Source of the DNA: Escherichia phage EP01
Length of the DNA: 64,000 bases
Sequence record: OM135583.1
Direction: 5' to 3' (one strand)
A model generated the notes under the pieces. That model saw only the letters and a program-made list of their open reading frames with translations. It was not told where the DNA came from and did no database searches. Both the position numbers and the translations under genes were made by a program. Below are positions 1 to 40,782 of the stretch, piece after piece. Each line of letters opens with the position of its first letter. Positions within the stretch are counted from its first letter, which is position 1.

Positions 1-964
1 GCGTTGAAAGCTGTTCAAATGAATGCGTACATTCAGAAACTTTATCTTTAATTTTAGAAACAACTTTATCACCAGAACTTAATTGTGACAAACAGGTTGG
101 ACATAATCCACCTTCGTGATACATATTAATGACTTTATTATACGAGTCAATTTTTGATTTAATTAAAAATGCTTCTTGACCGATTTTATTAAATGCATCA
201 GTCGGGTCTTCATCCAAAACAATATTAACTAATCTTTCATTAGCTTCTTCTATTTCCGATTTTAGCGTTCTAGCTTCTTTTGCCAAATCATCATACATAT
301 TCTGCAGACGAGTAAGGTTATCACCAGTTAATTTTTTCTGGCGTTCAACGTTATCATTATATATTTTAATTTGTTGGATAATACTATCTTTTTTAACATC
401 AAGCACTTGGTTTTGTGAATTTAATTCACGTATTAGTGCTTTATTAAGCTTATCCATTTCAGCTAATGTTCCTACCTCAAGCAGGTCTTCCACAAGCTTT
501 CTTCGCGCAGGGGTCGACAAACCCATGAAAGGGGTATACCCTGCTGTACCAAGGACAACAATCTGCTTGAAACTGGCATATGACATTCCGATAAGCTGTT
601 CAAATTCTGCTTGGAAATCTTTACTGCTGGCAGATTCATTAAGACGTGTACCGTTAACGGTGATTTCGAAAACGTTTGGTTTTTGTCCTCTTTTGATATA
701 GTACTTTTTCTCATCATATTCCATCCACAGTTCAACTAAAAGTTCTTTCTTATTTGTGCTGTTTATTAATTGACCTTTCTTTACATCACGGAATGGCTTG
801 CCAAAAAGCCCAAATGTGATGGCTTCTAACATAGTAGACTTACCACCGCCATTTCGTCCAGTAATAAGAGTTTTTTGAACCTTATCTAATTGAATGTCAA
901 CTCCATTTTGACCAACTGACATTATATTTTTATATTTTACTCTATTAAGTTTAAATGATTTCAT
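1..964 (-). CDS. 46: Recombination endonuclease subunit gp46 (Rad50/SbcC-like ATPase), N-terminal ~321 codons; continues beyond window start
   Basis: Minus-strand frame open from ATG at 964 to position 1 (absent from ORF track because no stop in window); begins MKSFKLNRVKYKNIMSVGQNGVDIQLDKVQKTLITGRNGGGKST (Walker A); adjacent to gp47 as in T4. Confidence 0.85.
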   Translation of the reverse strand, partial: MKSFKLNRVKYKNIMSVGQNGVDIQLDKVQKTLITGRNGGGKSTMLEAITFGLFGKPFRDVKKGQLINSTNKKELLVELWMEYDEKKYYIKRGQKPNVFEITVNGTRLNESASSKDFQAEFEQLIGMSYASFKQIVVLGTAGYTPFMGLSTPARRKLVEDLLEVGTLAEMDKLNKALIRELNSQNQVLDVKKDSIIQQIKIYNDNVERQKKLTGDNLTRLQNMYDDLAKEARTLKSEIEEANERLVNIVLDEDPTDAFNKIGQEAFLIKSKIDSYNKVINMYHEGGLCPTCLSQLSSGDKVVSKIKDKVSECTHSFEQLST

Positions 965-979
965 TTTGTATCCAATTGT

Positions 980-1834
980 TCACAATGAAGAAAATTCTTT
1001 AACTAAAGCCTGTAATGAAGCCTCTATTGGATATCCATTCTTAACTAACATTTTCCTAAACATCACATGTTTAGGACGATTATATGATATCCACAATTCA
1101 TACAATTTATCTTTATTATCCCAATGATAGCCTTTTCGTCTAGATGCTATATGAGCTTTTCTAATCTCCGGATTTTTCCAACTAGCAGCTACTGAATTTG
1201 ATATAGCTATTTTATATTCAGGTTTTGATAAAGCAGCACGAACAGCCTTTTGGTGTTTAATTTTATTTTCTTCGTTATTAAACCATTCCCTTGAAGCCAT
1301 TGAAATTTTTTGTTTTGTTTTAAAATTATTTAATCTTTCTTTGTTATCTTTCCTATTTTTTGCTACTGAAAAATATTTTAATGCCCTTTCTCTAGCAGCA
1401 TTTCTATTTTGCGGATTTGAATAATACTGTTGAAGCCTTTTTGATATTGTGTCACTTACATCTTGTTTTATAAAACTATATTCAGCAGCTATTAAATCAA
1501 CTTCGGCTAAAGATAAATTTTTATATGTTTTTCCTGACATCATTCTATTTAAAGCATTTAGCATTTTTCCATTTTTACCTTTTGCTAATAAGAAGTGTGC
1601 TTTAAAATGATTAAAATGACTTAAATTAACTAAATTCCATGTAGATTTTAAATATTCAGGAAATATTGATTTAGGAAGCACGTGGTGTGCTTCCGTTTTA
1701 CCTGGAGTTTTAACAGTTGAATTCATAGAAATAAAATTAATGTAAGACTTGGCGTCTTCTTCACTCAACGCTAATTTTTCAACTAATTCCTTTATTAAAA
1801 ATTCATCATTAATGTCAAGTTTAAAATTCTTCAC
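980..1834 (-). CDS. Free-standing HNH homing endonuclease (mob-like)
   Basis: 284 aa; EAHHVLPKS...N...H HNH-type motif; basic C-terminal region; inserted between genes 47 and 46. Confidence 0.75.
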   Translation of the reverse strand: MKNFKLDINDEFLIKELVEKLALSEEDAKSYINFISMNSTVKTPGKTEAHHVLPKSIFPEYLKSTWNLVNLSHFNHFKAHFLLAKGKNGKMLNALNRMMSGKTYKNLSLAEVDLIAAEYSFIKQDVSDTISKRLQQYYSNPQNRNAARERALKYFSVAKNRKDNKERLNNFKTKQKISMASREWFNNEENKIKHQKAVRAALSKPEYKIAISNSVAASWKNPEIRKAHIASRRKGYHWDNKDKLYELWISYNRPKHVMFRKMLVKNGYPIEASLQALVKEFSSL

Positions 1835-2094
1835 AAAAGATTCCTTTTAATGTATCTTTTAGACCATTCTATCATATCATCATAATCTAAAAAGTATTCA
1901 TCAAATTCAGCCATGCAAACAACACCTTGTGCTGCTTTTGATGTGATATAAATTATTCCAACATATCTAGAATCTTCTTCGGTGTAATCAATATTTGCTA
2001 TGAATTCATCGTTAATGTCAAATGTCGAAAACTTCACAGTATGCATCCTTAATACAAGATACAGCCATATCTTGTAATGATTTAGGTGTGTCAT
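1831..2094 (-). CDS. Hypothetical protein
   Basis: 87-aa ORF on coding strand; N-terminus VKFSTFDINDEF resembles N-terminus of adjacent HNH gene; start uncertain. Confidence 0.5.
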   Translation of the reverse strand: MTHLNHYKIWLYLVLRMHTVKFSTFDINDEFIANIDYTEEDSRYVGIIYITSKAAQGVVCMAEFDEYFLDYDDMIEWSKRYIKRNLL

Positions 2095-2281
2095 TATCTA
2101 AAATGTTGAAGTTAAAAGATACAGCCCAGTCAGTGCAGACCGTGACCTTTTTAATACAATTATCTTCAACCTCTAACGGTTCAAACCAATATTCAATAAT
2201 TTCTTTATGCCCAATATCATCTTTTACTTCACATTCAAAATGCTGACTCATCATAACATTTTTAAATTCATCAAAAGTCAT
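2018..2281 (-). CDS. Hypothetical protein
   Basis: 87-aa ORF immediately downstream of gp47, same strand. Confidence 0.55.
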   Translation of the reverse strand: MTFDEFKNVMMSQHFECEVKDDIGHKEIIEYWFEPLEVEDNCIKKVTVCTDWAVSFNFNILDNDTPKSLQDMAVSCIKDAYCEVFDI

Positions 2282-3297
2282 TGTGTTGCCTCTACATATA
2301 ACTGATTTGCATATTGAATAAGTGCTTCGCGATCAGAATCAGTGATGTCTGGAATTGCATTAATGTATTCTTCCATCAACGTCTGAAGAGATTGAACTTC
2401 AACTTCTTCGCTATCATCTGACTCGACAGAGTTATCAATCTTTGACACAACTCGTAATGAATGCACAACTTTTTCTAGTTCAGATTCGAACTTCGTCAGA
2501 TTTTTGTCTACCTCAGTTACTATAACACGTACTGATAGATTTGTAAAATCTTTATAGTCAATTTTTCCCTTAAATGGATATTGAATTCGACGATGCCAGG
2601 TAGTGTTGTTTGGAATAAATTCCATTCGTTCTGTTTCTGTATCAAACATCCAGAACCCGCGAGGGTCATTCTCGTCACCTGCAGTTAATGTCCATGGTGT
2701 CCCAATATATCTGACGTTAGCAGCCTCAGAGATAGTATGGAAGTGACCAGACCACACTTCTTTGTAAGTCTTAAGGAAATCAGGTTCAAGACCATGAGAT
2801 TTCATTCCTTTATAAAAATAGAATCCATTCAGTTCCCAGTGACCGACACAAAAAGAAGCAGATGAAGTTTTGATGTGTTCAAGAATTTCGCCAGTATTTT
2901 CTTCACACATCCAAGGAATTAAATCAATCAAACATCCGTCAAAATCTACTGTAGTAGGCTTATCATATACTTTAACATTAGGATATTTAGCCAAAAGCTC
3001 AGTAGAAGCATTTGGATGCATTACATTTTTATAGTGGAGATCGTGATTTCCTACAATAGTATGTAATGTGATTCCAGCGTCATCAAGCATTTGAACTATT
3101 TCACGTGCAAACTCCATAGTTTTATGCGTAATCGCTTTTCGCACATCAAAAATATCACCGTATTGAATCCATGTAGTAATTCCGTTTTTCTTAGAATATT
3201 CTATCGCTTGCTTAATTCCGTCAAGTTGAATACCGCGAATCCATTCATCGTCAGCTTTAACGCCTAAATGCCAATCACCTAAATTTAAAATTTTCAT
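2278..3297 (-). CDS. 47: Recombination endonuclease subunit gp47 (Mre11-like metallophosphatase)
   Basis: 339 aa (same length as T4 gp47); N-terminal GDWHLG phosphoesterase motif, GNHD motif. Confidence 0.93.
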   Translation of the reverse strand: MKILNLGDWHLGVKADDEWIRGIQLDGIKQAIEYSKKNGITTWIQYGDIFDVRKAITHKTMEFAREIVQMLDDAGITLHTIVGNHDLHYKNVMHPNASTELLAKYPNVKVYDKPTTVDFDGCLIDLIPWMCEENTGEILEHIKTSSASFCVGHWELNGFYFYKGMKSHGLEPDFLKTYKEVWSGHFHTISEAANVRYIGTPWTLTAGDENDPRGFWMFDTETERMEFIPNNTTWHRRIQYPFKGKIDYKDFTNLSVRVIVTEVDKNLTKFESELEKVVHSLRVVSKIDNSVESDDSEEVEVQSLQTLMEEYINAIPDITDSDREALIQYANQLYVEATQ

Positions 3298-3473
3298 ATA
3301 TCAAGAACCGTCATTGAAATGCAAAATAAAATTATTGAAATAAATCCATCTGGAGTACTAAAGAACCCAATCCAACATGCTCTAGTGAATAGATAAAATG
3401 CAAGAAAAAGTATCACATATCCAAGAAATATCATTATATCAAACTCCGTATAAAGCTAAAGGGCCGAAGCCCT

Positions 3474-4676
3474 TTATTTTGTAATAATGTCAAACTGTTC
3501 TTTAAAGCAGAAGCTTGAATCTTGATGCTGATACAGAAATTCATAAGCTTTTTCACGTTCACGGTCATAAAGAGCTCGATCAGATGACAGTTCTTTAATA
3601 CGTTCAAATGTTGATTCCATGTCATTTTCATCAAACCAAACGATACCGCTATCATGAGAAATTAACGGAGTATTATCAACACGGAATTTTAAATTTTCAC
3701 CAGTAGATTTCCAAAATACTGGAATTGTTCCGCATGCACCAAGCTCGAGATGAGTGTATTCTAAAGAACGTTGTAGATATTTTTTATCTAATTTACTCAG
3801 CTGATAACCAAATCCGGATTTACTCATACGTTCAAGCATTTCGCTATTTACATAACGATCGAGAATTTGCGTTGGCAAATTAGGAGCAATTTTAATTTGG
3901 TCTACTTGATGAAGACGATAATACTCATATGGAATTCCTTTTTCTTTAATAGGAATGAATGCTGGAGAACGTTCCAGACCTTCCATAATAGTACTTAGTC
4001 CTGCAGGTTTAAGATGTTTTTCGTGAAAATCAAACATCTGGTAAAAACCTTTCCATGTAGTCGTACGACCAATCCAACGGTTGATATTCATGTTAATTTC
4101 AGAAACATCTTTCCAGTAGGTTGATCGAACCTTCGCAATATCCATAGGAGGCTGAAAGTTATATACGGTCGGTGCTTCTTCAATATCATCAAACAAAGAA
4201 ACAGTTTCCGGATACCATTCTTTCATTAAAACTTTATTAAAATCGCCATTATCAGAATGACTAAAAATAACATCAGCTCGACGAACAGTTTCTTCTAATC
4301 CCAAATTTCGGCGTAAAGAAAGAGAAGAATGGTCATGCTGATAAACTACAACACGAACCGAAGGTTTAATATTATCAATAATTTTTTTATAGTTATTAAT
4401 TGTGTCTTCTTCGACTGAAGTAGCAGGAACTGAATTGATAATTAGAATATCACAATCATTTACCAGCTTAAGTGTTTTATCGTATTCTTTTGCCAATAAA
4501 ACCGGAATTGAAAATGATTTATAATCATGCGCGCAATTACGAGTAAATGATTTATCTTTAGCATAAACCAAAGTTACTTCATGACCATTTTTAATAAACC
4601 AATCACGTTGCTCAAGAGAAAATTTAGTTACACCGCAACCTTCAAGACCTCGAGCCATAAAAATACATACTTTCAT
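3474..4676 (-). CDS. a-gt: DNA alpha-glucosyltransferase
   Basis: 400 aa (T4 a-gt length), position between 47 and 55 as in T4. Confidence 0.85.
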   Translation of the reverse strand: MKVCIFMARGLEGCGVTKFSLEQRDWFIKNGHEVTLVYAKDKSFTRNCAHDYKSFSIPVLLAKEYDKTLKLVNDCDILIINSVPATSVEEDTINNYKKIIDNIKPSVRVVVYQHDHSSLSLRRNLGLEETVRRADVIFSHSDNGDFNKVLMKEWYPETVSLFDDIEEAPTVYNFQPPMDIAKVRSTYWKDVSEINMNINRWIGRTTTWKGFYQMFDFHEKHLKPAGLSTIMEGLERSPAFIPIKEKGIPYEYYRLHQVDQIKIAPNLPTQILDRYVNSEMLERMSKSGFGYQLSKLDKKYLQRSLEYTHLELGACGTIPVFWKSTGENLKFRVDNTPLISHDSGIVWFDENDMESTFERIKELSSDRALYDREREKAYEFLYQHQDSSFCFKEQFDIITK

Positions 4677-8616: not shown

Positions 8617-9087
8617 TTAATCATGTTTCCACACCCCATCGGTATTTGACCAAAGTCGCTGATTATCTGAACCTCGCCACAGCTTTTTGGTCGGAAGATT
8701 TTTCTCATACTTCCCATCAATAATAACATCAACATATTTAAGCATTTCTAGTTGTTTAATATCTTCAAATTTATATCCTGTCCACAACCAAATGCTTTTA
8801 TTTGGATAAAGATTTTTTACCGTTTGAACAATGCAATGAACAGCATCTCGGTTATCAGGATAAAGAGGGTCACCTCCAGTTATAGTTAATCCTTCTATAT
8901 AATCATTATTCAAACATTCAATTAATTGTTCTAGTGTTTCACCAGTGAATGGAACGCCATTTCTAGCATTCCATGTTGATTTATTATAACACCCTTCACA
9001 TTTATGCAAACACCCCGTAACGAAAAGAACGACCCTGCATCCAGGGCCATTCACAAAATCGCAGGGATAAAATCTATCGTAATTCAT
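8617..9087 (-). CDS. nrdG: Anaerobic ribonucleotide reductase activating protein (radical SAM)
   Basis: 156 aa; CLHKCEGCYNK cysteine cluster; directly downstream of nrdD. Confidence 0.92.
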   Translation of the reverse strand: MNYDRFYPCDFVNGPGCRVVLFVTGCLHKCEGCYNKSTWNARNGVPFTGETLEQLIECLNNDYIEGLTITGGDPLYPDNRDAVHCIVQTVKNLYPNKSIWLWTGYKFEDIKQLEMLKYVDVIIDGKYEKNLPTKKLWRGSDNQRLWSNTDGVWKHD

Positions 9088-10901
9088 TGGTGTTTAATCC
9101 TATGCATGATTTCTTTATTTTTGCCAAGATTAAATCCGCGCTCGTTCGGATTTCCCAAATAGCCACATGTTCTTCTTATTGTGTTCATCTTTTTAGGATC
9201 AGTTTCTCCACAAATAGAACAAACAAATCCGTTTTCAGTAGGAGTCATTTCATGGGTACTTCCACATGTAAAACATTTATCTACTGGCATATTAACACCA
9301 AAATAATCTAAATGTTGTGCAGCATAATCCCATACAGCCTCAAGACCTTTTAGGTTATTTTTCATATCAGGAAGTTCAACATAAGAAATGTGACCACCTG
9401 TCGCAATGAAATGATATGGTGCTTCACGAGAAATCTTTTCAAATGGAGTAATATTTTCTTCTACCGAAACGTGGAAACTGTTAGTGTACCAGCCTTTATC
9501 GGTAACATCTTTTACACTTCCATATTTTTCGGTATCAAGTTTACAGAAGCGGTAGCACAGGTTTTCAGCAGGTGTAGAATACAAACTAAAAGCAAAACCG
9601 GTTCTTTCGGTCCACTGCTTAAGACGAGCATTCATTTTAGTTAAAATTTCTTGTCCAATATCACGACCGACAAGAATATTCAATTCGTGAATACCAATGT
9701 ATCCTAGGGACACTGAACTTCTACCGTTTTTAAATAACTCAATTATGTCATCGTCAGGTTTAAGACGAACCCCGAATGCACCTTCTTGATAAAGAATAGG
9801 AGCAACAGTCGCTTTAACTCCTTTTAAGGAACTGATTCTACACATCAAAGCTTCAAAACATAAATCCATTCGTTCATTGAACAATTCGGCAAATTTCTGT
9901 TCATTGAACTGTGTTCCAATATAAGAATCTAACGCAATTCGAGGAAGATTCAGTGTTACAACACCAAGATTATTACGTCCATCAAGAATTTCATTACCAG
10001 TCGAATCTTTCCATACGCCCAAGAAACTACGGCAACCCATTGGAGAAACAGGAATAGATGAACCAGTGATAGCTTTATTGTTCTTAGCCGAAATGATGTC
10101 AGGATACATTCTTTTGCTTGCACACTCTAGAGCAAGCTGCTTAATATCATAGTTCGGATCGTCTTTATAAAGATTAACACCTTCTTCAACGAACATAACA
10201 AGTTTAGGGAAAATAGGAGTTATCCCGTCACGACCAAGACCTTTAATACGATTTTTCAGAATTGCTTTCTGAATCATTCGTTCAGTCCAGTCAGTTCCCG
10301 TACCAAATGTAATTGTTACAAAAGGCGTTTGTCCGTTTGAGCTAAAGAGAGTATTTACTTCGTATTCATAAGCTTGGAATGCATCGTATACGTCTTTTTC
10401 TGTTTTAGATTGGGCATAATTCAATGCATCAGCGATTTGCCATTTTTCTGCGTCCTCAATATGTTTTGCGTAGGTGCGTTTAACATAAGGAGAAAGGACT
10501 TTATCTACATTCGCAAAAGTCGTTCCGCCATATTGATGGGAAGCAACCTGCGCAGTAATTTGTGCCATAATTGCAGTAGCAACGCCGATTGATTTAGGAG
10601 TTTCAATCTGCGCATTACCGAGCTTAAATCCGTTCTCAAGCATTCCTTTTAAATCTACTAAACAGCAATTAGTAAATGGAAGAGCGGGGGAATAATCAAT
10701 ATCATGGAAATGGATAATTCCGCTTTCATGCGCTTTCATAATAAAAGACGGGACCATATTTTTGGCAATGTGTTTAGACACAATACCAGCCATAAGGTCC
10801 CGTTGAGTTGGAAAAACACGAGAATCTTTATTAGCATTCTCGTTTAAAAGGTCTTTATTAGTTTTATGAATTAATCCTTCAATTTCTTTTTCAATTGTCA
10901 T
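9084..10901 (-). CDS. nrdD: Anaerobic ribonucleoside-triphosphate reductase (glycyl radical enzyme)
   Basis: 605 aa uninterrupted; C-terminal glycyl radical motif RRTCGYLG; Cys-rich zinc ribbon CFTCGSTHE...CSICG. Confidence 0.95.
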   Translation of the reverse strand: MTIEKEIEGLIHKTNKDLLNENANKDSRVFPTQRDLMAGIVSKHIAKNMVPSFIMKAHESGIIHFHDIDYSPALPFTNCCLVDLKGMLENGFKLGNAQIETPKSIGVATAIMAQITAQVASHQYGGTTFANVDKVLSPYVKRTYAKHIEDAEKWQIADALNYAQSKTEKDVYDAFQAYEYEVNTLFSSNGQTPFVTITFGTGTDWTERMIQKAILKNRIKGLGRDGITPIFPKLVMFVEEGVNLYKDDPNYDIKQLALECASKRMYPDIISAKNNKAITGSSIPVSPMGCRSFLGVWKDSTGNEILDGRNNLGVVTLNLPRIALDSYIGTQFNEQKFAELFNERMDLCFEALMCRISSLKGVKATVAPILYQEGAFGVRLKPDDDIIELFKNGRSSVSLGYIGIHELNILVGRDIGQEILTKMNARLKQWTERTGFAFSLYSTPAENLCYRFCKLDTEKYGSVKDVTDKGWYTNSFHVSVEENITPFEKISREAPYHFIATGGHISYVELPDMKNNLKGLEAVWDYAAQHLDYFGVNMPVDKCFTCGSTHEMTPTENGFVCSICGETDPKKMNTIRRTCGYLGNPNERGFNLGKNKEIMHRIKHQ

Positions 10902-30524: not shown

Positions 30525-31103
30525 TTAATTACCACGGGCTGCATTAGCAACGGCATAAGCGTACTGAACATTAGCGTCCTTAAACGTACCTTTAGAGGTA
30601 TCTATTTCTGCCTTAAAGCCGCCTTTAGCCATAACATCGGCAAATTCTTTACGGAAAGCCATTGCATCAAGACCTTTCCATGATGATTTGTGCTTGGCGA
30701 ATTCAAGACCAGCGTAGTTGACAGCCTTAGCTAATTTATTATCAATGACCCATTTACCGGCTTTAGGCACAAACTTCGGACCTTTTTGTTTAGAGAACAG
30801 TTTTAAATTCCAGCGACGAAGATCACTGTCGGCTTTAACAAAAGCTGCGTCTAAGTTACTAGCAACAACATCTTCAATATGAGCAAATTTAAGTCCGTCA
30901 ACTTCAATATTTAGATCGTTACGCCAGCGAAGTCCTTCCCAAGCGAAAGCTTTAAAGTCAGAAGCTTTTGTGGCTAGATATCGTTCAAGTGGAGCAGTTT
31001 TAGGGTCAAAGCCGTTTCCGCCACGATAAGTCCACTCATCTTTATTAATGCCTTTGGCCTTTACTACAGAAGCTTCAGCAATAAATTCTTGATACGTTTT
31101 CAT
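30525..31103 (-). CDS. ipIII: Internal head protein with capsid-targeting sequence (IPIII-like)
   Basis: 192 aa; N-terminal MKTYQEFIAEA capsid-targeting sequence; size and position next to e match T4 ipIII. Confidence 0.7.
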   Translation of the reverse strand: MKTYQEFIAEASVVKAKGINKDEWTYRGGNGFDPKTAPLERYLATKASDFKAFAWEGLRWRNDLNIEVDGLKFAHIEDVVASNLDAAFVKADSDLRRWNLKLFSKQKGPKFVPKAGKWVIDNKLAKAVNYAGLEFAKHKSSWKGLDAMAFRKEFADVMAKGGFKAEIDTSKGTFKDANVQYAYAVANAARGN

Positions 31104-31129
31104 TTTTGTTCCTATTGTTTTAATTCATG

Positions 31130-31447
31130 TTATTCTTTAGGGAAGTTTTTAGAGTATGCGTCATAAAGTTTATTACCGATGCGTCGGAAAACTCTAGCTG
31201 CAAAACGGTTTTCAGGGTTTTTAATCATGATTTGCATCATGTAAGTTCCTGCATCCGAAAGAGCTTCTTCATAGTACCCATTAATTTCTTTAAGAGTCCT
31301 ACGTTTACCACCAGGACCATCAACAGTAATTTTCCATTTACCTGTAGAAGTGCGACTTGGCGGCTCAACTTGTTCAATCCAGATATAACCGCCTTCTACA
31401 CGTTGTCCTTGGGCAGATTCTGCAATAAATTCTTTAAACGTTTTCAT
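31130..31447 (-). CDS. ipII: Internal head protein with capsid-targeting sequence (IPII-like)
   Basis: 105 aa; N-terminal MKTFKEFIAES; own early promoter upstream. Confidence 0.65.
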   Translation of the reverse strand: MKTFKEFIAESAQGQRVEGGYIWIEQVEPPSRTSTGKWKITVDGPGGKRRTLKEINGYYEEALSDAGTYMMQIMIKNPENRFAARVFRRIGNKLYDAYSKNFPKE

Positions 31448-36725: not shown

Positions 36726-36802
36726 TGGTCGAGGCAGAAGGATTCTAACCTTCAACCAACGGATTAGAAATCCGTTGCTCTATACAATTGAGCTATGCCT
36801 CG
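36726..36802 (-). tRNA. tRNA-Arg (anticodon UCU), CCA encoded
   Basis: Hand-folded cloverleaf: acceptor CGAGGCA/TGCCTCG, anticodon loop TTTCTAA, T-loop; 5' end overlaps stop of segB ORF. Confidence 0.8.
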
Positions 36803-37470
36803 TAGTTAAAATTCATTTTTCGACCTTTAAACCATCCTTCTGGAATTGGGTCAGTTTTCTTAATACGTTTAGAAACTTTTTCATCTAATGAATGAATCCA
36901 CATCATACCAAATTGGGAATTCTTTTCACCTTGTTGGTGTTTATTTCTGGCGTGAGATTCTTTCATTTTATTAATAGTTTCAGGAGTATGGGTCTTACCC
37001 AAGAAAGATTTAGTATTTAAAAATTTCTCTCTATACTTAGGATTATCCCAAAGCTGTTTAAACCTTTCTGAACCCATTTTACGGTATTTTTCTTTAAGGT
37101 CTGGGTCGTTCTCAAATCTGATTTTAAAAGCGGCAGCTCCTTTTAAGGAAGCTTCTTTCTTTTTATCCAAATATTCTTTAGTGTTTAAATGGCCCCAACC
37201 ACCTTCACCACCTAATTTCAAATTATAAACATCAGGGCGCTTTAAAAACTCTTCAGTCACAATATTCTTTTCTGACTCAAACATAGAGGTTTTATCGTCA
37301 AAGAACTCTAATATTTCTTTAGAAAAATTTTCTATACCATACTTGTCTTGGGCTCTTTTTAATAATTTACCAGAACCCATATATCCATCATCTAAATTTT
37401 CGGTAGAATGAGCGCCTATATAGATTTTATTATTAATTTTATTTGTTATTTTATAAATGTAATGGAACAT
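36793..37470 (-). CDS. segB: GIY-YIG homing endonuclease (SegB-like) inside tRNA cluster
   Basis: 225 aa; N-terminal YIYKITNKINNKIYIGAHS GIY-YIG motif; located between tRNA-Ile and tRNA-Arg. Confidence 0.85.
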   Translation of the reverse strand: MFHYIYKITNKINNKIYIGAHSTENLDDGYMGSGKLLKRAQDKYGIENFSKEILEFFDDKTSMFESEKNIVTEEFLKRPDVYNLKLGGEGGWGHLNTKEYLDKKKEASLKGAAAFKIRFENDPDLKEKYRKMGSERFKQLWDNPKYREKFLNTKSFLGKTHTPETINKMKESHARNKHQQGEKNSQFGMMWIHSLDEKVSKRIKKTDPIPEGWFKGRKMNFNYEA

Positions 37471-38470: not shown

Positions 38471-38653
38471 TTAACCTTTAGAAATTTTATCCATAACAAT
38501 AGCGATTAAACCAATTAAAAATGCTACTACAAGTGAAAAAACATTTTCTGCTGTAGTCAATAATCCGCATATAAATCCAACAAACATTGAAAAACTAAAA
38601 GCGGAAGCAGAAATTGCAATAGCAACATTTCGAATTAATTCACAACGTTTCAT
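38471..38653 (-). CDS. Small membrane protein
   Basis: 60 aa, largely hydrophobic; cassette promoter upstream. Confidence 0.55.
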   Translation of the reverse strand: MKRCELIRNVAIAISASAFSFSMFVGFICGLLTTAENVFSLVVAFLIGLIAIVMDKISKG

Positions 38654-38680
38654 TTTATTCTCCTCAGTAGTTGATAGGGT

Positions 38681-38712
38681 AATAGTATCACACTACTACC
38701 CAGAAGTAAACA
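38681..38712 (-). promoter_or_regulatory. Early promoter, internal-protein cassette
   Basis: GTTTAC (38711-38706), 18 bp, TACTAT (38687-38682), conserved UTR ...CAACTACTGAGGAGAATAAAATG. Confidence 0.6.
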
Positions 38713-38714
38713 AC

Positions 38715-38939
38715 TTATTCCGCTCCAGCAGCTTTCAAAAGCTTTTTAAGATTAGCAGTGCCACGAGCAGAAAACGTGACTTTACCATCCTTTTCACTAA
38801 TAGAGCCAGTTAACTTAGAAAGTTTATCGCTAGGAATTTTTTTAAAATCACTTAATGTACCATCAAAAGTTTTCGTAACAATTGGTAGTTCATCTTCATG
38901 TCTTTTAGCTTCAGCGATAAATTTTTGATAAGTTTTCAT
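38715..38939 (-). CDS. Internal-protein-like gene with capsid-targeting sequence (cassette 1)
   Basis: 74 aa; MKTYQKFIAEA N-terminus; own promoter cassette. Confidence 0.7.
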   Translation of the reverse strand: MKTYQKFIAEAKRHEDELPIVTKTFDGTLSDFKKIPSDKLSKLTGSISEKDGKVTFSARGTANLKKLLKAAGAE

Positions 38940-38966
38940 TTTATTCTCCTCAGTAGTTGATAGGGT

Positions 38967-38998
38967 AATAATATCACTACCCTATCTAAAAGTAAACG
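38967..38998 (-). promoter_or_regulatory. Early promoter, internal-protein cassette
   Basis: GTTTAC (38997-38992), 18 bp, TATTAT (38973-38968). Confidence 0.6.
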
Positions 38999-39007
38999 GT
39001 TTATAAA

Positions 39008-39316
39008 CTATTTTATTCCGCGTGATGCAATTGTGTTCTGCCGTTTAGCACCAGTTTGTTTAAAGTCATGATTGTCGATTTGATCGGTACGAGCAACTCC
39101 GAATGATGATTTGATTTTAGCTTTAGATCCTTTAGTTATAGAAATAAACATCTCGGAAGCCCCTTTCTTAAAGTCCGAGGCGATTACTTCAACGCCGTTC
39201 TTAGCAAGTGACCTCAGAATTGCTTCCGCATACTCATCATCAAGACCCGCTTGAGTATAAATAATGAATGTCTTTGGTGCAGCCGCTTCATTGATAAATT
39301 CTTGGTAAGTTTTCAT
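39008..39316 (-). CDS. Internal-protein-like gene with capsid-targeting sequence (cassette 2)
   Basis: 102 aa; MKTYQEFINEAA N-terminus. Confidence 0.7.
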   Translation of the reverse strand: MKTYQEFINEAAAPKTFIIYTQAGLDDEYAEAILRSLAKNGVEVIASDFKKGASEMFISITKGSKAKIKSSFGVARTDQIDNHDFKQTGAKRQNTIASRGIK

Positions 39317-39345
39317 TTTATTTTCCTAATTAATTTTGATAAGGT

Positions 39346-39377
39346 AATAGTACCACAACCCTATTTAAAAGTAAACT
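39346..39377 (-). promoter_or_regulatory. Early promoter, internal-protein cassette
   Basis: GTTTAC (39376-39371), 18 bp, TACTAT (39352-39347). Confidence 0.6.
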
Positions 39378-39649
39378 CATTTTAAATAAATTGCGTATTT
39401 TTTATAACCCGCTGACTCATGACGAAGACCCTTATCATTAGCAAAACGCTCAATGTTGTTAATTTGATTCTGGTCAAGTTCAGAGATGTCAAACACGAAA
39501 TAGTTACGTTTGTTACCAACTGTTACATAGTCAGTTAAATCAATACCATATAGGTAATTGATGTTATCAATCATAGTCTTGACAGCTTTGCTAATTTTTA
39601 CTTTTTCGTTAAAAGTAGCTTCATTGATAAATTCTTTAAATGTTTTCAT
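39377..39649 (-). CDS. Internal-protein-like gene with capsid-targeting sequence (cassette 3)
   Basis: 90 aa; MKTFKEFINEAT N-terminus. Confidence 0.7.
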   Translation of the reverse strand: MKTFKEFINEATFNEKVKISKAVKTMIDNINYLYGIDLTDYVTVGNKRNYFVFDISELDQNQINNIERFANDKGLRHESAGYKKYAIYLK

Positions 39650-39676
39650 TTTATTCTCCTCAGTAGTTGATAGGGT

Positions 39677-39708
39677 AATAGTATCACAACTAAAACCCTA
39701 TGTAAACA
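39677..39708 (-). promoter_or_regulatory. Early promoter, internal-protein cassette
   Basis: GTTTAC (39707-39702), 18 bp, TACTAT (39683-39678). Confidence 0.6.
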
Positions 39709-39725
39709 ACTTTGTGAAATATTTA

Positions 39726-40013
39726 TTACAAAAGATTTTTAGCAATAATCTTGAGATGTGCCGCAGAAATGTGTTTAGCTTTAAACAACGCAGTTTCTTC
39801 AGCAGGAGAGATAATGATTGTAGCACCATCCTTTTTAGCAGACCACCCATCACCTAGGTAAACAGTACCTTTGATTTCTTCGCCATCAACCAAACTAATC
39901 ATTGGTTTACCTTCTCGTCCTTTATTTGCTTTAATAACTTCAGAAGTAAGAGTAGCTTCAGTAATAGTAGAAACCGGGATAGTTGTAGAAGTAAATTCTT
40001 TGAAAGTTTTCAT
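39726..40013 (-). CDS. Internal-protein-like gene with capsid-targeting sequence (cassette 4; ipI position)
   Basis: 95 aa (T4 IPI precursor length), MKTFKEFTSTT N-terminus, adjacent to 57B as ipI is in T4; sequence identity with T4 IPI not verified. Confidence 0.65.
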   Translation of the reverse strand: MKTFKEFTSTTIPVSTITEATLTSEVIKANKGREGKPMISLVDGEEIKGTVYLGDGWSAKKDGATIIISPAEETALFKAKHISAAHLKIIAKNLL

Positions 40014-40042
40014 TTTATTTTCCTAATTAATTTTGATGAGAT

Positions 40043-40074
40043 AATAGTATCACTACCTCATCAGCGTGTAAACA
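40043..40074 (-). promoter_or_regulatory. Early promoter, internal-protein cassette (ipI position)
   Basis: GTTTAC (40073-40068), 18 bp, TACTAT (40049-40044). Confidence 0.6.
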
Positions 40075-40085
40075 ACTTTGTGAAA

Positions 40086-40782
<697 letters not shown>

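Follow-up and report, generated by a model that had tools for sequence, protein, structure and literature searches.

How a gene that carries neither a promoter nor a ribosome-binding site of its own can enter an operon of essential function and let the invaded gene survive is the question raised by the gene 46 locus of Escherichia phage EP01 (sequence record OM135583.1). We analyzed a stretch of 64,000 nucleotides of this genome, here called the window, in which a homing endonuclease gene (HEG; positions 980–1834, minus strand) lies directly upstream of gene 46 and shares a repeat with the start of the small gene 46.1. A sequence-only reading of the same DNA had interpreted the repeat as the footprint of a homing insertion that copied, or fused to, the 5′ end of a resident small gene. 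We consider it likely that the whole arrangement is explained by a promoter-less, free-standing homing cassette of the T4 Mob (HNH) type aimed at the 5′ end of gene 46. The functionally important parts are the replacement 5′ end of gene 46 and the diverged patch linked to it, both absent from the earlier reading.

The position of the insertion follows from the comparison with relatives that lack the element. The source region is that of a Tequatrovirus, a T4-like phage, and positions 700–2600 are 98–99.5% identical in DNA to many T-even phages of Escherichia, Shigella, and Salmonella. The gene order on the minus strand is a-gt, 47.1, 47, 46.2, 46.1, HEG, 46. The enzyme had been placed between gp47 and gp46; gene 46 is its neighbor, but gene 47 does not adjoin it, with 46.2 and 46.1 intervening and the true interval lying between 46.1 and 46. 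In HEG-less T4, the stop codon of 46.1 overlaps the start of gene 46 (...AAAAGGAATCTTTTGTGAAGAATTTTAAACTT, continuing as AATAGAGTAAAATAT...). In the window, the T4 sequence runs unchanged through GTGAAGAATTTTAAACTT and then passes via GACATTAATGATGAATTT... into the HEG; past the HEG stop codon come ACAATTGGATACAAA, ATGAAATCATTTAAACTT, and AATAGAGTAAAATAT... in succession. We aligned seven HEG-bearing alleles, six of them natural (the window, T6, RB51, BCPShso_001, G2133, and T2) and one from Ac3, with six HEG-less alleles (T4, RB9, slur04, Ozark, Shfl2, and ESh33). The two sets are identical up to GTGAAGAATTTTAAACT(T) and identity resumes at TTTAAACTTAATAGA; the junctions are the same in all six natural HEG-bearing genomes. 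By this alignment, approximately 870 nucleotides are shown to be inserted past codon 6 of gene 46, relative to HEG-less T4-like alleles. The comparison with T4 proposed earlier as a means of defining the empty site thus puts the insertion point inside gene 46 and demonstrates that HEG-free alleles exist.

The cassette has taken over the initiation region of its target. The captured region (1817–1848, minus strand) comprises the gene 46 Shine-Dalgarno sequence AAAAGGAA (1841–1848), the GTG start codon (1832–1834), and codons 1–6, encoding MKNFKL, and it is identical up to the junction to the gene 46 starts of the six HEG-less genomes. The first 18 nucleotides of the HEG match the start of T4 gene 46 at 18 of 18 positions, and 46.1 itself is untouched; its TGA stop codon overlaps the HEG start as GTGA. 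The HEG thus has no initiation signals of its own and is predicted to be translated from the gene 46 Shine-Dalgarno sequence and GTG, the GTGA overlap providing the coupling to 46.1. Mob genes that lack promoters and depend on translational coupling have been reviewed (PMC2988022). A sigma-70 promoter scan returned 14 sites against 13.9 expected in shuffled sequence, with T4 middle and late promoter types outside the coverage of the tool; the promoter and terminator scan tied no element to the repeat, and terminator-like matches were few.

Gene 46 is restored on the far side of the HEG. Fifteen nucleotides (ACAATTGGATACAAA, 965–979, minus strand, read from the sequence) separate the HEG stop codon (980–982) from a new ATG (962–964). 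This spacer contains a weak, Shine-Dalgarno-like GGA element and is invariant in all seven HEG-bearing alleles, including that of the otherwise recoded Ac3. The new ATG opens a cassette-borne replacement 5′ end of gene 46 (902–964, minus strand), in which codons 2–3 are recoded, so that MKNFKL becomes MKSFKL, and which contains the variant patch. The remainder of the gene, encoding the Rad50/SbcC-like subunit (1–901, minus strand), is ~99% identical to that of HEG-less congeners and leaves the window. The HEG is therefore flanked by a second duplication that the sequence-only reading missed: HEG codons 1–6 (1817–1834, GTGAAGAATTTTAAACTT) and codons 1–6 of the restored gene 46 (947–964, ATGAAATCATTTAAACTT) agree at 13 of 18 positions, with nine nucleotides matching exactly. 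The right flanking copy matches ATGAAATCATTTAAA, with which gene 46 begins in a different genus (for example in Mosigvirus APCEc01). A transposon with a target-site duplication was considered and rejected: the flanking copies agree at only 13 of 18 positions (nine nucleotides exact), and there is neither a transposase nor terminal inverted repeats.

The identity of the inserted gene is supported at several levels. The ORF (open reading frame) at 980–1834 is an intact, GTG-initiated gene for 284 residues, as had been stated, and its designation as an HNH endonuclease is upheld by profile matches, homology to T4 MobD, and a conserved motif. The protein shares 99% identity with an 85-member protein cluster and with the T6 copy. 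A PHROG search assigned it to phrog_655 (‘homing endonuclease’, E=8e-45), with a further match to phrog_12434 (‘HNH endonuclease’, E=4e-15), and it aligns with T4 MobD over 243 residues (E=2e-18, 30% identity). RefSeq records of relatives label the orthologues ‘homing endonuclease’. The HNH core (residues ~47–84, TEAHHVLPKS...NLVNLSHFNHFKAHFLL; 1583–1696, minus strand) is marked by invariant residues and by profile-versus-PDB matches: H50, H51, P54, N67, H76, and H80 do not vary among nine aligned homologues (the HEG product and eight relatives), and with the family profile, the top five PDB matches all fall on this segment and represent HNH domains or nucleases of the HNH family, marginal in significance yet consistent (E=0.011–0.08). 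They include a group II intron maturase (6me0, E=0.011), Cas8f-HNH fusions, and McrA. A single-sequence PDB search with the HEG protein gave no match. An Rfam scan of positions 700–2500 found no group I or II intron at E≤1, only sub-threshold chance matches; because no intron was found, the gene is a separate ORF with its own stop codon, and gene 46 restarts 15 nucleotides later, we regard the HEG as free-standing. The product is assigned on these grounds to the HNH homing endonucleases of the T4 Mob subfamily, with putative activity. It belongs to a clade that is distinct from MobD and specific to the gene 46 site, with 43–44% identity between Tequatrovirus copies and those of Mosigvirus and Gelderlandvirus. 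In the same segment, a near-perfect palindrome (GGAAGCACGTGGTGTGCTTCC, 9-bp stem, 1674–1694) covers the codons of the catalytic EAHHVLP, and its antisense strand was flagged by the terminator scan.

The second constituent of the cassette is a short stretch of gene 46 itself. Nucleotides 10–63 of gene 46 form a HEG-linked variant patch, with KYKNIMSVGQNG in place of RYQNIMSVGGNP. When HEG-bearing genomes are compared with HEG-less congeners, the patch is identical at 41 of 54 positions in Tequatrovirus, 43 of 54 in Mosigvirus, and 29 of 54 in Gelderlandvirus, whereas nucleotides 64–600 agree at 532, 527, and 531 of 537 positions, respectively. Sharp divergence between HEG-bearing and HEG-less alleles is thus confined, across three genera, to nucleotides ~10–63 of gene 46, with ~99% identity beyond; in Mosigvirus, the patch is narrower, spanning about nucleotides 31–63. 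The patch of HEG-bearing Gelderlandvirus is closer to the Tequatrovirus patch than to that of its own congeners, matching the former at 45 of 54 positions with a 24-nucleotide identical run (TTTAAACTTAATAGAGTAAAATAT) over a background of 72%. The recurrent changes in HEG-bearing alleles are codon 12 from CAR to AAA or TCT, codon 17 from GTR to GTT, and codon 19 from GGN to CAA; the protein then reads Y(K/S)NIMSVGQ in place of YQNIMSVGG. T4 has no HEG, yet it carries the HEG-type patch at 53 of 54 positions. The divergence of the patch in HEG-bearing members of three genera argues that the cassette moves across genera together with a short variant of the target gene 5′ end. The most economical reading is that a putative recognition or cleavage site lies around nucleotides 30–65 of gene 46 (window ~900–935) and that the patch would make carriers resistant.

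The repeat that first drew attention to the locus (given as 1801–1840 versus 2003–2042) is real. A repeat search aligned 1791–1835, the HEG start region, with 1994–2038, the start region of 46.1 (TGTGAAGTTTTCGACATTTGACATTAACGATGAATTCATAGCAAA), both on the minus strand, over 45 nucleotides at 76% identity. Compared without gaps from the two GTG codons, the copies agree at 28 of 36 positions, and the next-best non-self match of the HEG start in the window reaches 24 of 36. The shuffled-sequence control called for earlier was carried out on 200 first-order-Markov, composition-matched sequences of 64 kb, both strands searched (128 kb): none reached 28 of 36 (mean maximum 23.4, highest 27). Where the 46.1 copy carries AAT in place of AAC, as in T4, T6, and many other genomes, the match is exact over 19 nucleotides, TTGACATTAATGATGAATT.

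The repeat dissolves into two parts of different origin. Its first 18 nucleotides, which in 46.1 read GTGAAGTTTTCGACATTT, are shared between the 46.1 and gene 46 starts at 12 of 18 positions already in HEG-less T4 (hand count). Its second part corresponds to HEG codons 7–12 (GACATTAATGATGAATTT, encoding DINDEF; 1799–1816, minus strand), which match codons 7–12 of 46.1 at 17 of 18 positions in T4 and 16 of 18 in the window’s own copy. In 46.1, DINDEF is followed directly by IANIDYTEED. Its counterpart is NLDDEFVANIDYTEED in the 46.1 orthologue of Gaprivervirus, and (H/D)(E/D)F is retained at this place in those of Mosigvirus and Karamvirus. The nearest relatives of the HEG have no DINDEF-like segment in the alignment of nine homologues. 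Because the block is native to 46.1 and missing from the closest HEG relatives, codons 7–12 are attributed to 46.1, and the N-terminus of the HEG product is a mosaic of gene 46 codons 1–6, 46.1 codons 7–12, and a Mob body. We infer, with less certainty, that the repeat combines an older similarity between the 46.1 and 46 starts with an 18-nucleotide block from an earlier 46.1::HEG fusion; that DINDEF is the vestige of such a fusion has about even odds.

Part of this history has a counterpart in another genus. In HEG-less APCEc01 (Mosigvirus), the order is 46.2, 46.1 (beginning MTKTDYEIHRHEF...), and 46. In phiEC1 (Mosigvirus), 46.2 is followed by a HEG beginning MTKTDYE and continuing as TQIYKIL..., in which MTKTDYE corresponds to codons 1–7 of the APCEc01 46.1; over its first 22 nucleotides this HEG does not differ from 46.1, of which nothing further is left, and gene 46 follows immediately. 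An equivalent Tequatrovirus state with 46.1 codons 1–12 at the head of the HEG (46.1(1–12)::HEG) would explain the DINDEF block. From it, one-sided microhomology-mediated repair between GTGAAGTTTTCGACATTT of 46.1 and GTGAAGAATTTTAAACTT of gene 46 would yield the exact present junction and keep 46.1 intact. Illegitimate one-sided repair of double-strand breaks at microhomologies is documented for T4 homing (Parker et al. 1999, reviewed in PMC2988022).

The proposed cycle of the present element can be described in similar terms. The enzyme would cut or nick naive gene 46 alleles within about nucleotides 30–65; the break would be repaired from the HEG-bearing genome in a mixed infection; and the repair would copy the HEG together with the linked resistant patch, protecting the carrier. 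T4-type empty alleles could result either from short-tract repair of the cut or from deletion between the flanking TTTAAACTT repeats, and the T4 sequence is what a deletion between these two repeats would leave. A broader possibility, which we rate slightly short of even, is that the N-termini of Mob proteins are layered records of past sites, acquired by one-sided microhomology repair with a resistant 3′ arm: with each move, the start-less HEG body and the codons it already carries would be joined in frame behind the opening codons of the next target. Here, the layers would be 46.1 and then 46, with travel across genera accompanied by the ~55-nucleotide patch and with the T4 allele as a scar.

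Among the competing accounts, the one closest to the sequence-only reading survives best, and we still hold it to be improbable. On this account, one homing event, at the site occupied today, copied the 5′ end of 46.1 or fused to it, the repeat being the direct footprint of insertion, much like a target-site duplication. The repeat is indeed significant and begins at both start codons, and HEG codons 7–12 are derived from 46.1; the homing-type insertion with HEG-free alleles stands as well. The present insertion is nonetheless not a fusion to 46.1: measured against HEG-less alleles, the current junction lies in gene 46 and 46.1 is intact; HEG codons 1–6 are identical to gene 46 at 18 of 18 positions and to 46.1 at only 12 of 18; and the true flanks are two gene 46 starts that differ at 5 of 18 positions, unlike a duplication made by transposition. 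Moreover, homing by break repair creates no target duplications (PMC2988022). A tandem duplication of 46.1 was rejected on similar grounds: gene 46 is the source of HEG codons 1–6, and 5 of 18 positions distinguish the flanking copies.

Marginally less probable still is a later event without any fusion, in which short-patch conversion or ectopic recombination placed ~18 nucleotides of 46.1 into the 5′ end of the HEG, or the retention of the repeat as a shared translational operator or protein-binding site. The 12 of 18 positions that the two start regions share in HEG-less T4 offer a foothold for conversion, and the 17 of 18 agreement of the block with the resident Tequatrovirus 46.1 suggests recent or ongoing exchange; the I-TevI operator, which resembles its homing site (PMC2988022), is a precedent for the second variant. 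On the other side, the sequence 3′ of the block offers no homology by which a conversion tract could be resolved, phiEC1 shows that true 46.1::HEG fusions occur in the same HEG clade, and nothing points to a shared operator, the promoter-like sites being no more numerous than expected and none of them tied to the repeat. Chance likeness of two AT-rich gene starts that both begin GTG AAG, of a kind often behind short two-copy repeats, has a negligible probability and is ruled out by the shuffle test, since 28 of 36 is the top non-self score in 128 kb and is reached by none of the 200 random sequences, and since the match extends to 19 exact nucleotides in T4- and T6-type genomes at the same codon offset in both genes.

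Several observations weigh against the homing-cassette explanation or parts of it. A junction-specific pattern did not find the predicted 46.1(1–12)::HEG intermediate without the 46.1 body in IMG/VR, the listed matches of a synthetic junction sequence in GenBank phages all had the normal two-piece arrangement, and scans of IMG/VR viral contigs and JGI metagenome contigs found no HEG relative. Because the predicted intermediate was not found, the order of events is unproven: it may be the reverse, a later short conversion may have taken place, and the same fusion could equally have arisen later by deletion between the 19-nucleotide repeats. The HEG protein has no Pfam HNH match at E≤0.1 and no NCBIfam match at E≤1, a silence that reflects the coverage of the subfamily in these libraries and is not evidence against HNH membership. 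An AlphaFold2 model built from a five-sequence alignment places strands at residues 48–52 and 68–72 and a helix at 73–84, with a mean pLDDT (predicted local distance difference test) of 53 that is too low to confirm the fold; its Foldseek matches in the PDB all had E>1 and were disregarded. The MobC/nrdG example discussed below is ambiguous, as the N-terminus concerned may be native to the family. Rather than a selected immunity determinant, the patch may be a co-conversion tract passively acquired from a foreign donor; cleavage, the target site, and patch immunity are all inferred from sequence comparison.

The distribution of the HEG is sporadic. It occurs at one fixed site in genomes that are otherwise near-identical, with empty sites intact in T4, RB9, and others. 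Of the 518 records matched, 71 include the HEG, which amounts to about 14% in Tequatrovirus; among ~515 records of this genus, about 71 bear the HEG, about 70 have the T4-type empty allele, and about 375 have the RB9 type or close variants (approximate counts, from which partial matches were subtracted). The HEG is found on two gene 47 haplotypes, each of which is also common to HEG-less phages. Three of the seven copies inspected are intact (the window, T6, and BCPShso_001) and four are frameshifted (RB51, T2, G2133, and Ac3), which fits the familiar course of HEG invasion, decay, and loss. Beyond the genus, relatives with 43–44% identity immediately precede gene 46 in Mosigvirus phiEC1 and in the Gelderlandviruses UoN_LG358_1, Melville, SEA1, and CF-SP2, and the Gelderlandviruses S16, STP4-a, and STML-198 have no HEG. 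The interval between genes 47 and 46 is variable in Gelderlandvirus even without the HEG: S16 has a 46.1-like ORF (690–896) and STML-198 has none, the GTG of its gene 46 overlapping the gene 47 stop codon (690).

The Ac3 copy stands apart. In Ac3 (OK040907.1), positions 1967–3571 (corresponding to window ~230–1834), comprising the HEG and at least the first 600 nucleotides of gene 46, bear signs of recoding: DNA identity in gene 46 falls to 75% with the protein 100% identical, and the GC content is 0.48 versus 0.35, with E. coli-preferred codons (CTG, AAC, ATC). The 15-nucleotide spacer and the upstream 46.1 are unchanged, and the GTG start codon of the HEG reads GTT, as if a codon optimizer had read it as valine. 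The segment looks like synthetic or engineered DNA, or an assembly artifact, rather than natural divergence.

The closest parallels to this architecture come from other elements of T4-type phages. The T4 MobA cassette, between genes 39 and 60, likewise consists of a free-standing Mob-family HNH gene and an insert-borne variant copy of the sequence around the nick site, with a functional host gene and a carrier that is presumably protected; in the MobA element, a homologous segment (homR) takes the place of the nick site (bioRxiv 10.1101/2022.08.31.505936). MobA, however, splits its target midway and adds extensions and a translational bypass, whereas the HEG described here enters six codons into the gene, takes the start codon and ribosome-binding site, and supplies a new ATG, with no splitting and no bypass. 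SegF, SegG, and MobE, the T4 examples of intronless homing, are free-standing HEGs that cut an adjacent gene in relatives lacking them, flanking markers being co-converted. They share the presence/absence pattern among close relatives, the promoter-less cassette within an operon, the linked polymorphic tract, and a cut close to the insertion point, which here is predicted (PMC2988022). Their activity has been demonstrated, while that of the present HEG is predicted from its sequence, and the tract here is very short (~55 nucleotides) and common to three genera. MobD is the closest T4 protein, its 30% identity over 243 residues extending over the HNH core and the C-terminal region, but it resides at a different locus, mobD.1/nrdC.11, and in another clade.

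The capture of a target’s 5′ end recurs at nrdD–nrdG, which is also the SegH site. T4 MobC and the HEGs of UFV-AREG1 and Roth04 belong to the same family and start with the first codons of the downstream target. The UFV-AREG1 HEG (also in KK4 and Klebsiella phage Roth04) begins with nrdG codons 1–13 (MNYDRFYPCDFVN, the same as at the start of nrdG in HEG-less genomes, the window among them, 8617–9087) and is followed downstream by a diverged nrdG start, MNYDRIYPCCFVN. The diverged copy of the target 5′ end after the HEG is thus shared with the gene 46 element, with 13 nrdG codons captured (7 in MobC); the target gene is different, and a second-layer vestige from another gene is absent. T4 MobC begins MNYDRIY, which is NrdG-like, but as a clean example of 5′ capture it was downgraded to ambiguous, since MNYxRIY-type N-termini occur in Mob-like HEGs at unrelated loci (MobD, the Dhakavirus HEG E33, and Acinetobacter phage PhT2). 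T4 mobD (~1107–1131) is preceded by and begins with ACCAATGAATTAT, the same 13 nucleotides as the nrdD-stop/nrdG-start junction at a different locus, which may date from a former residence at nrdG or be native to the family. In the window, nrdD (9084–10901) abuts nrdG (8617–9087) through an ATGA overlap with no endonuclease between them, an empty site for elements of the MobC, SegH, and UFV-AREG1 types. Literature searches found no description of a gene 46 HEG, its architecture, or a possible two-layer history, and a search of 5.8 billion proteins gave only five matches, none of them an intermediate form. The HEG is an uncharacterized representative of a known class, the free-standing Mob-type HNH homing endonucleases.

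The genes upstream of the cassette all read on the minus strand. Gene a-gt occupies 3474–4676 and 47.1 occupies 3294–3434. Gene 47, for the Mre11/SbcD-like subunit, spans 2278–3297 and was assigned from ORFs and the T4 annotation. Gene 46.2 (2018–2281, 87 residues) is supported by Pfam T4_Y03C (E=1e-43) and the T4 annotation, and its final 20 nucleotides overlap the start of 46.1. Gene 46.1 (1831–2037, 68 residues) has a GTG start, is intact, is equal in length in the T4 and RB51 annotations, and matches Pfam DUF5487 (E=2e-48, ORF residues 20–85). Many HEG-less genomes (RB9, slur04, Ozark, Shfl2, and ESh33) annotate gene 46 from an internal ATG (MSVGG..., position 2509 versus 2467), 42 nucleotides downstream of the conserved GTG, so that 14 conserved N-terminal residues are lost. 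The N-terminus MK(N/S/T)FKLNRV.Y.NIMSVG is kept across genera, with ATG or GTG at that position, and because of this conservation the upstream start is taken as the real one. Ozark carries another annotated homing endonuclease directly downstream of gene 46 (4148–4483, opposite strand), absent from the remaining genomes examined.

Elsewhere in the window, a 225-residue ORF (36793–37470, minus strand) beginning MFHYIYKITNKINNKIYIGAH has a GIY-YIG-like (Seg-type) N-terminus and is probably a second free-standing homing endonuclease. Families of direct repeats (31071–31447 and 38620–40086; up to 92 nucleotides, 76–83% identity) join an early-promoter-like block (TTGATAGGGTAATAGTATCAC ... GTAAAC, plus strand) to the first ~11 codons of several small minus-strand genes. 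These genes begin MKTYQEFI(A/N)EA or MKTFKEFI, one 5′ cassette being reused by at least six genes.

The target of the element, gene 46, encodes the Rad50-like nuclease subunit for double-strand break processing in T4-type phages, a function thought to act in homing itself. The locus illustrates how a cassette that brings neither promoter nor ribosome-binding site can enter an essential operon with survival of the host gene: the start codon and ribosome-binding site are captured, and a replacement 5′ end is carried along. It also distinguishes the classical phages, T2 having a defective copy, T6 an intact one, and T4 no HEG but the linked patch, and it explains the frequent mis-started or missing annotation of gene 46 and the HEG. 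Finally, the architecture offers a reading of an element’s past insertion sites from its N-terminus.

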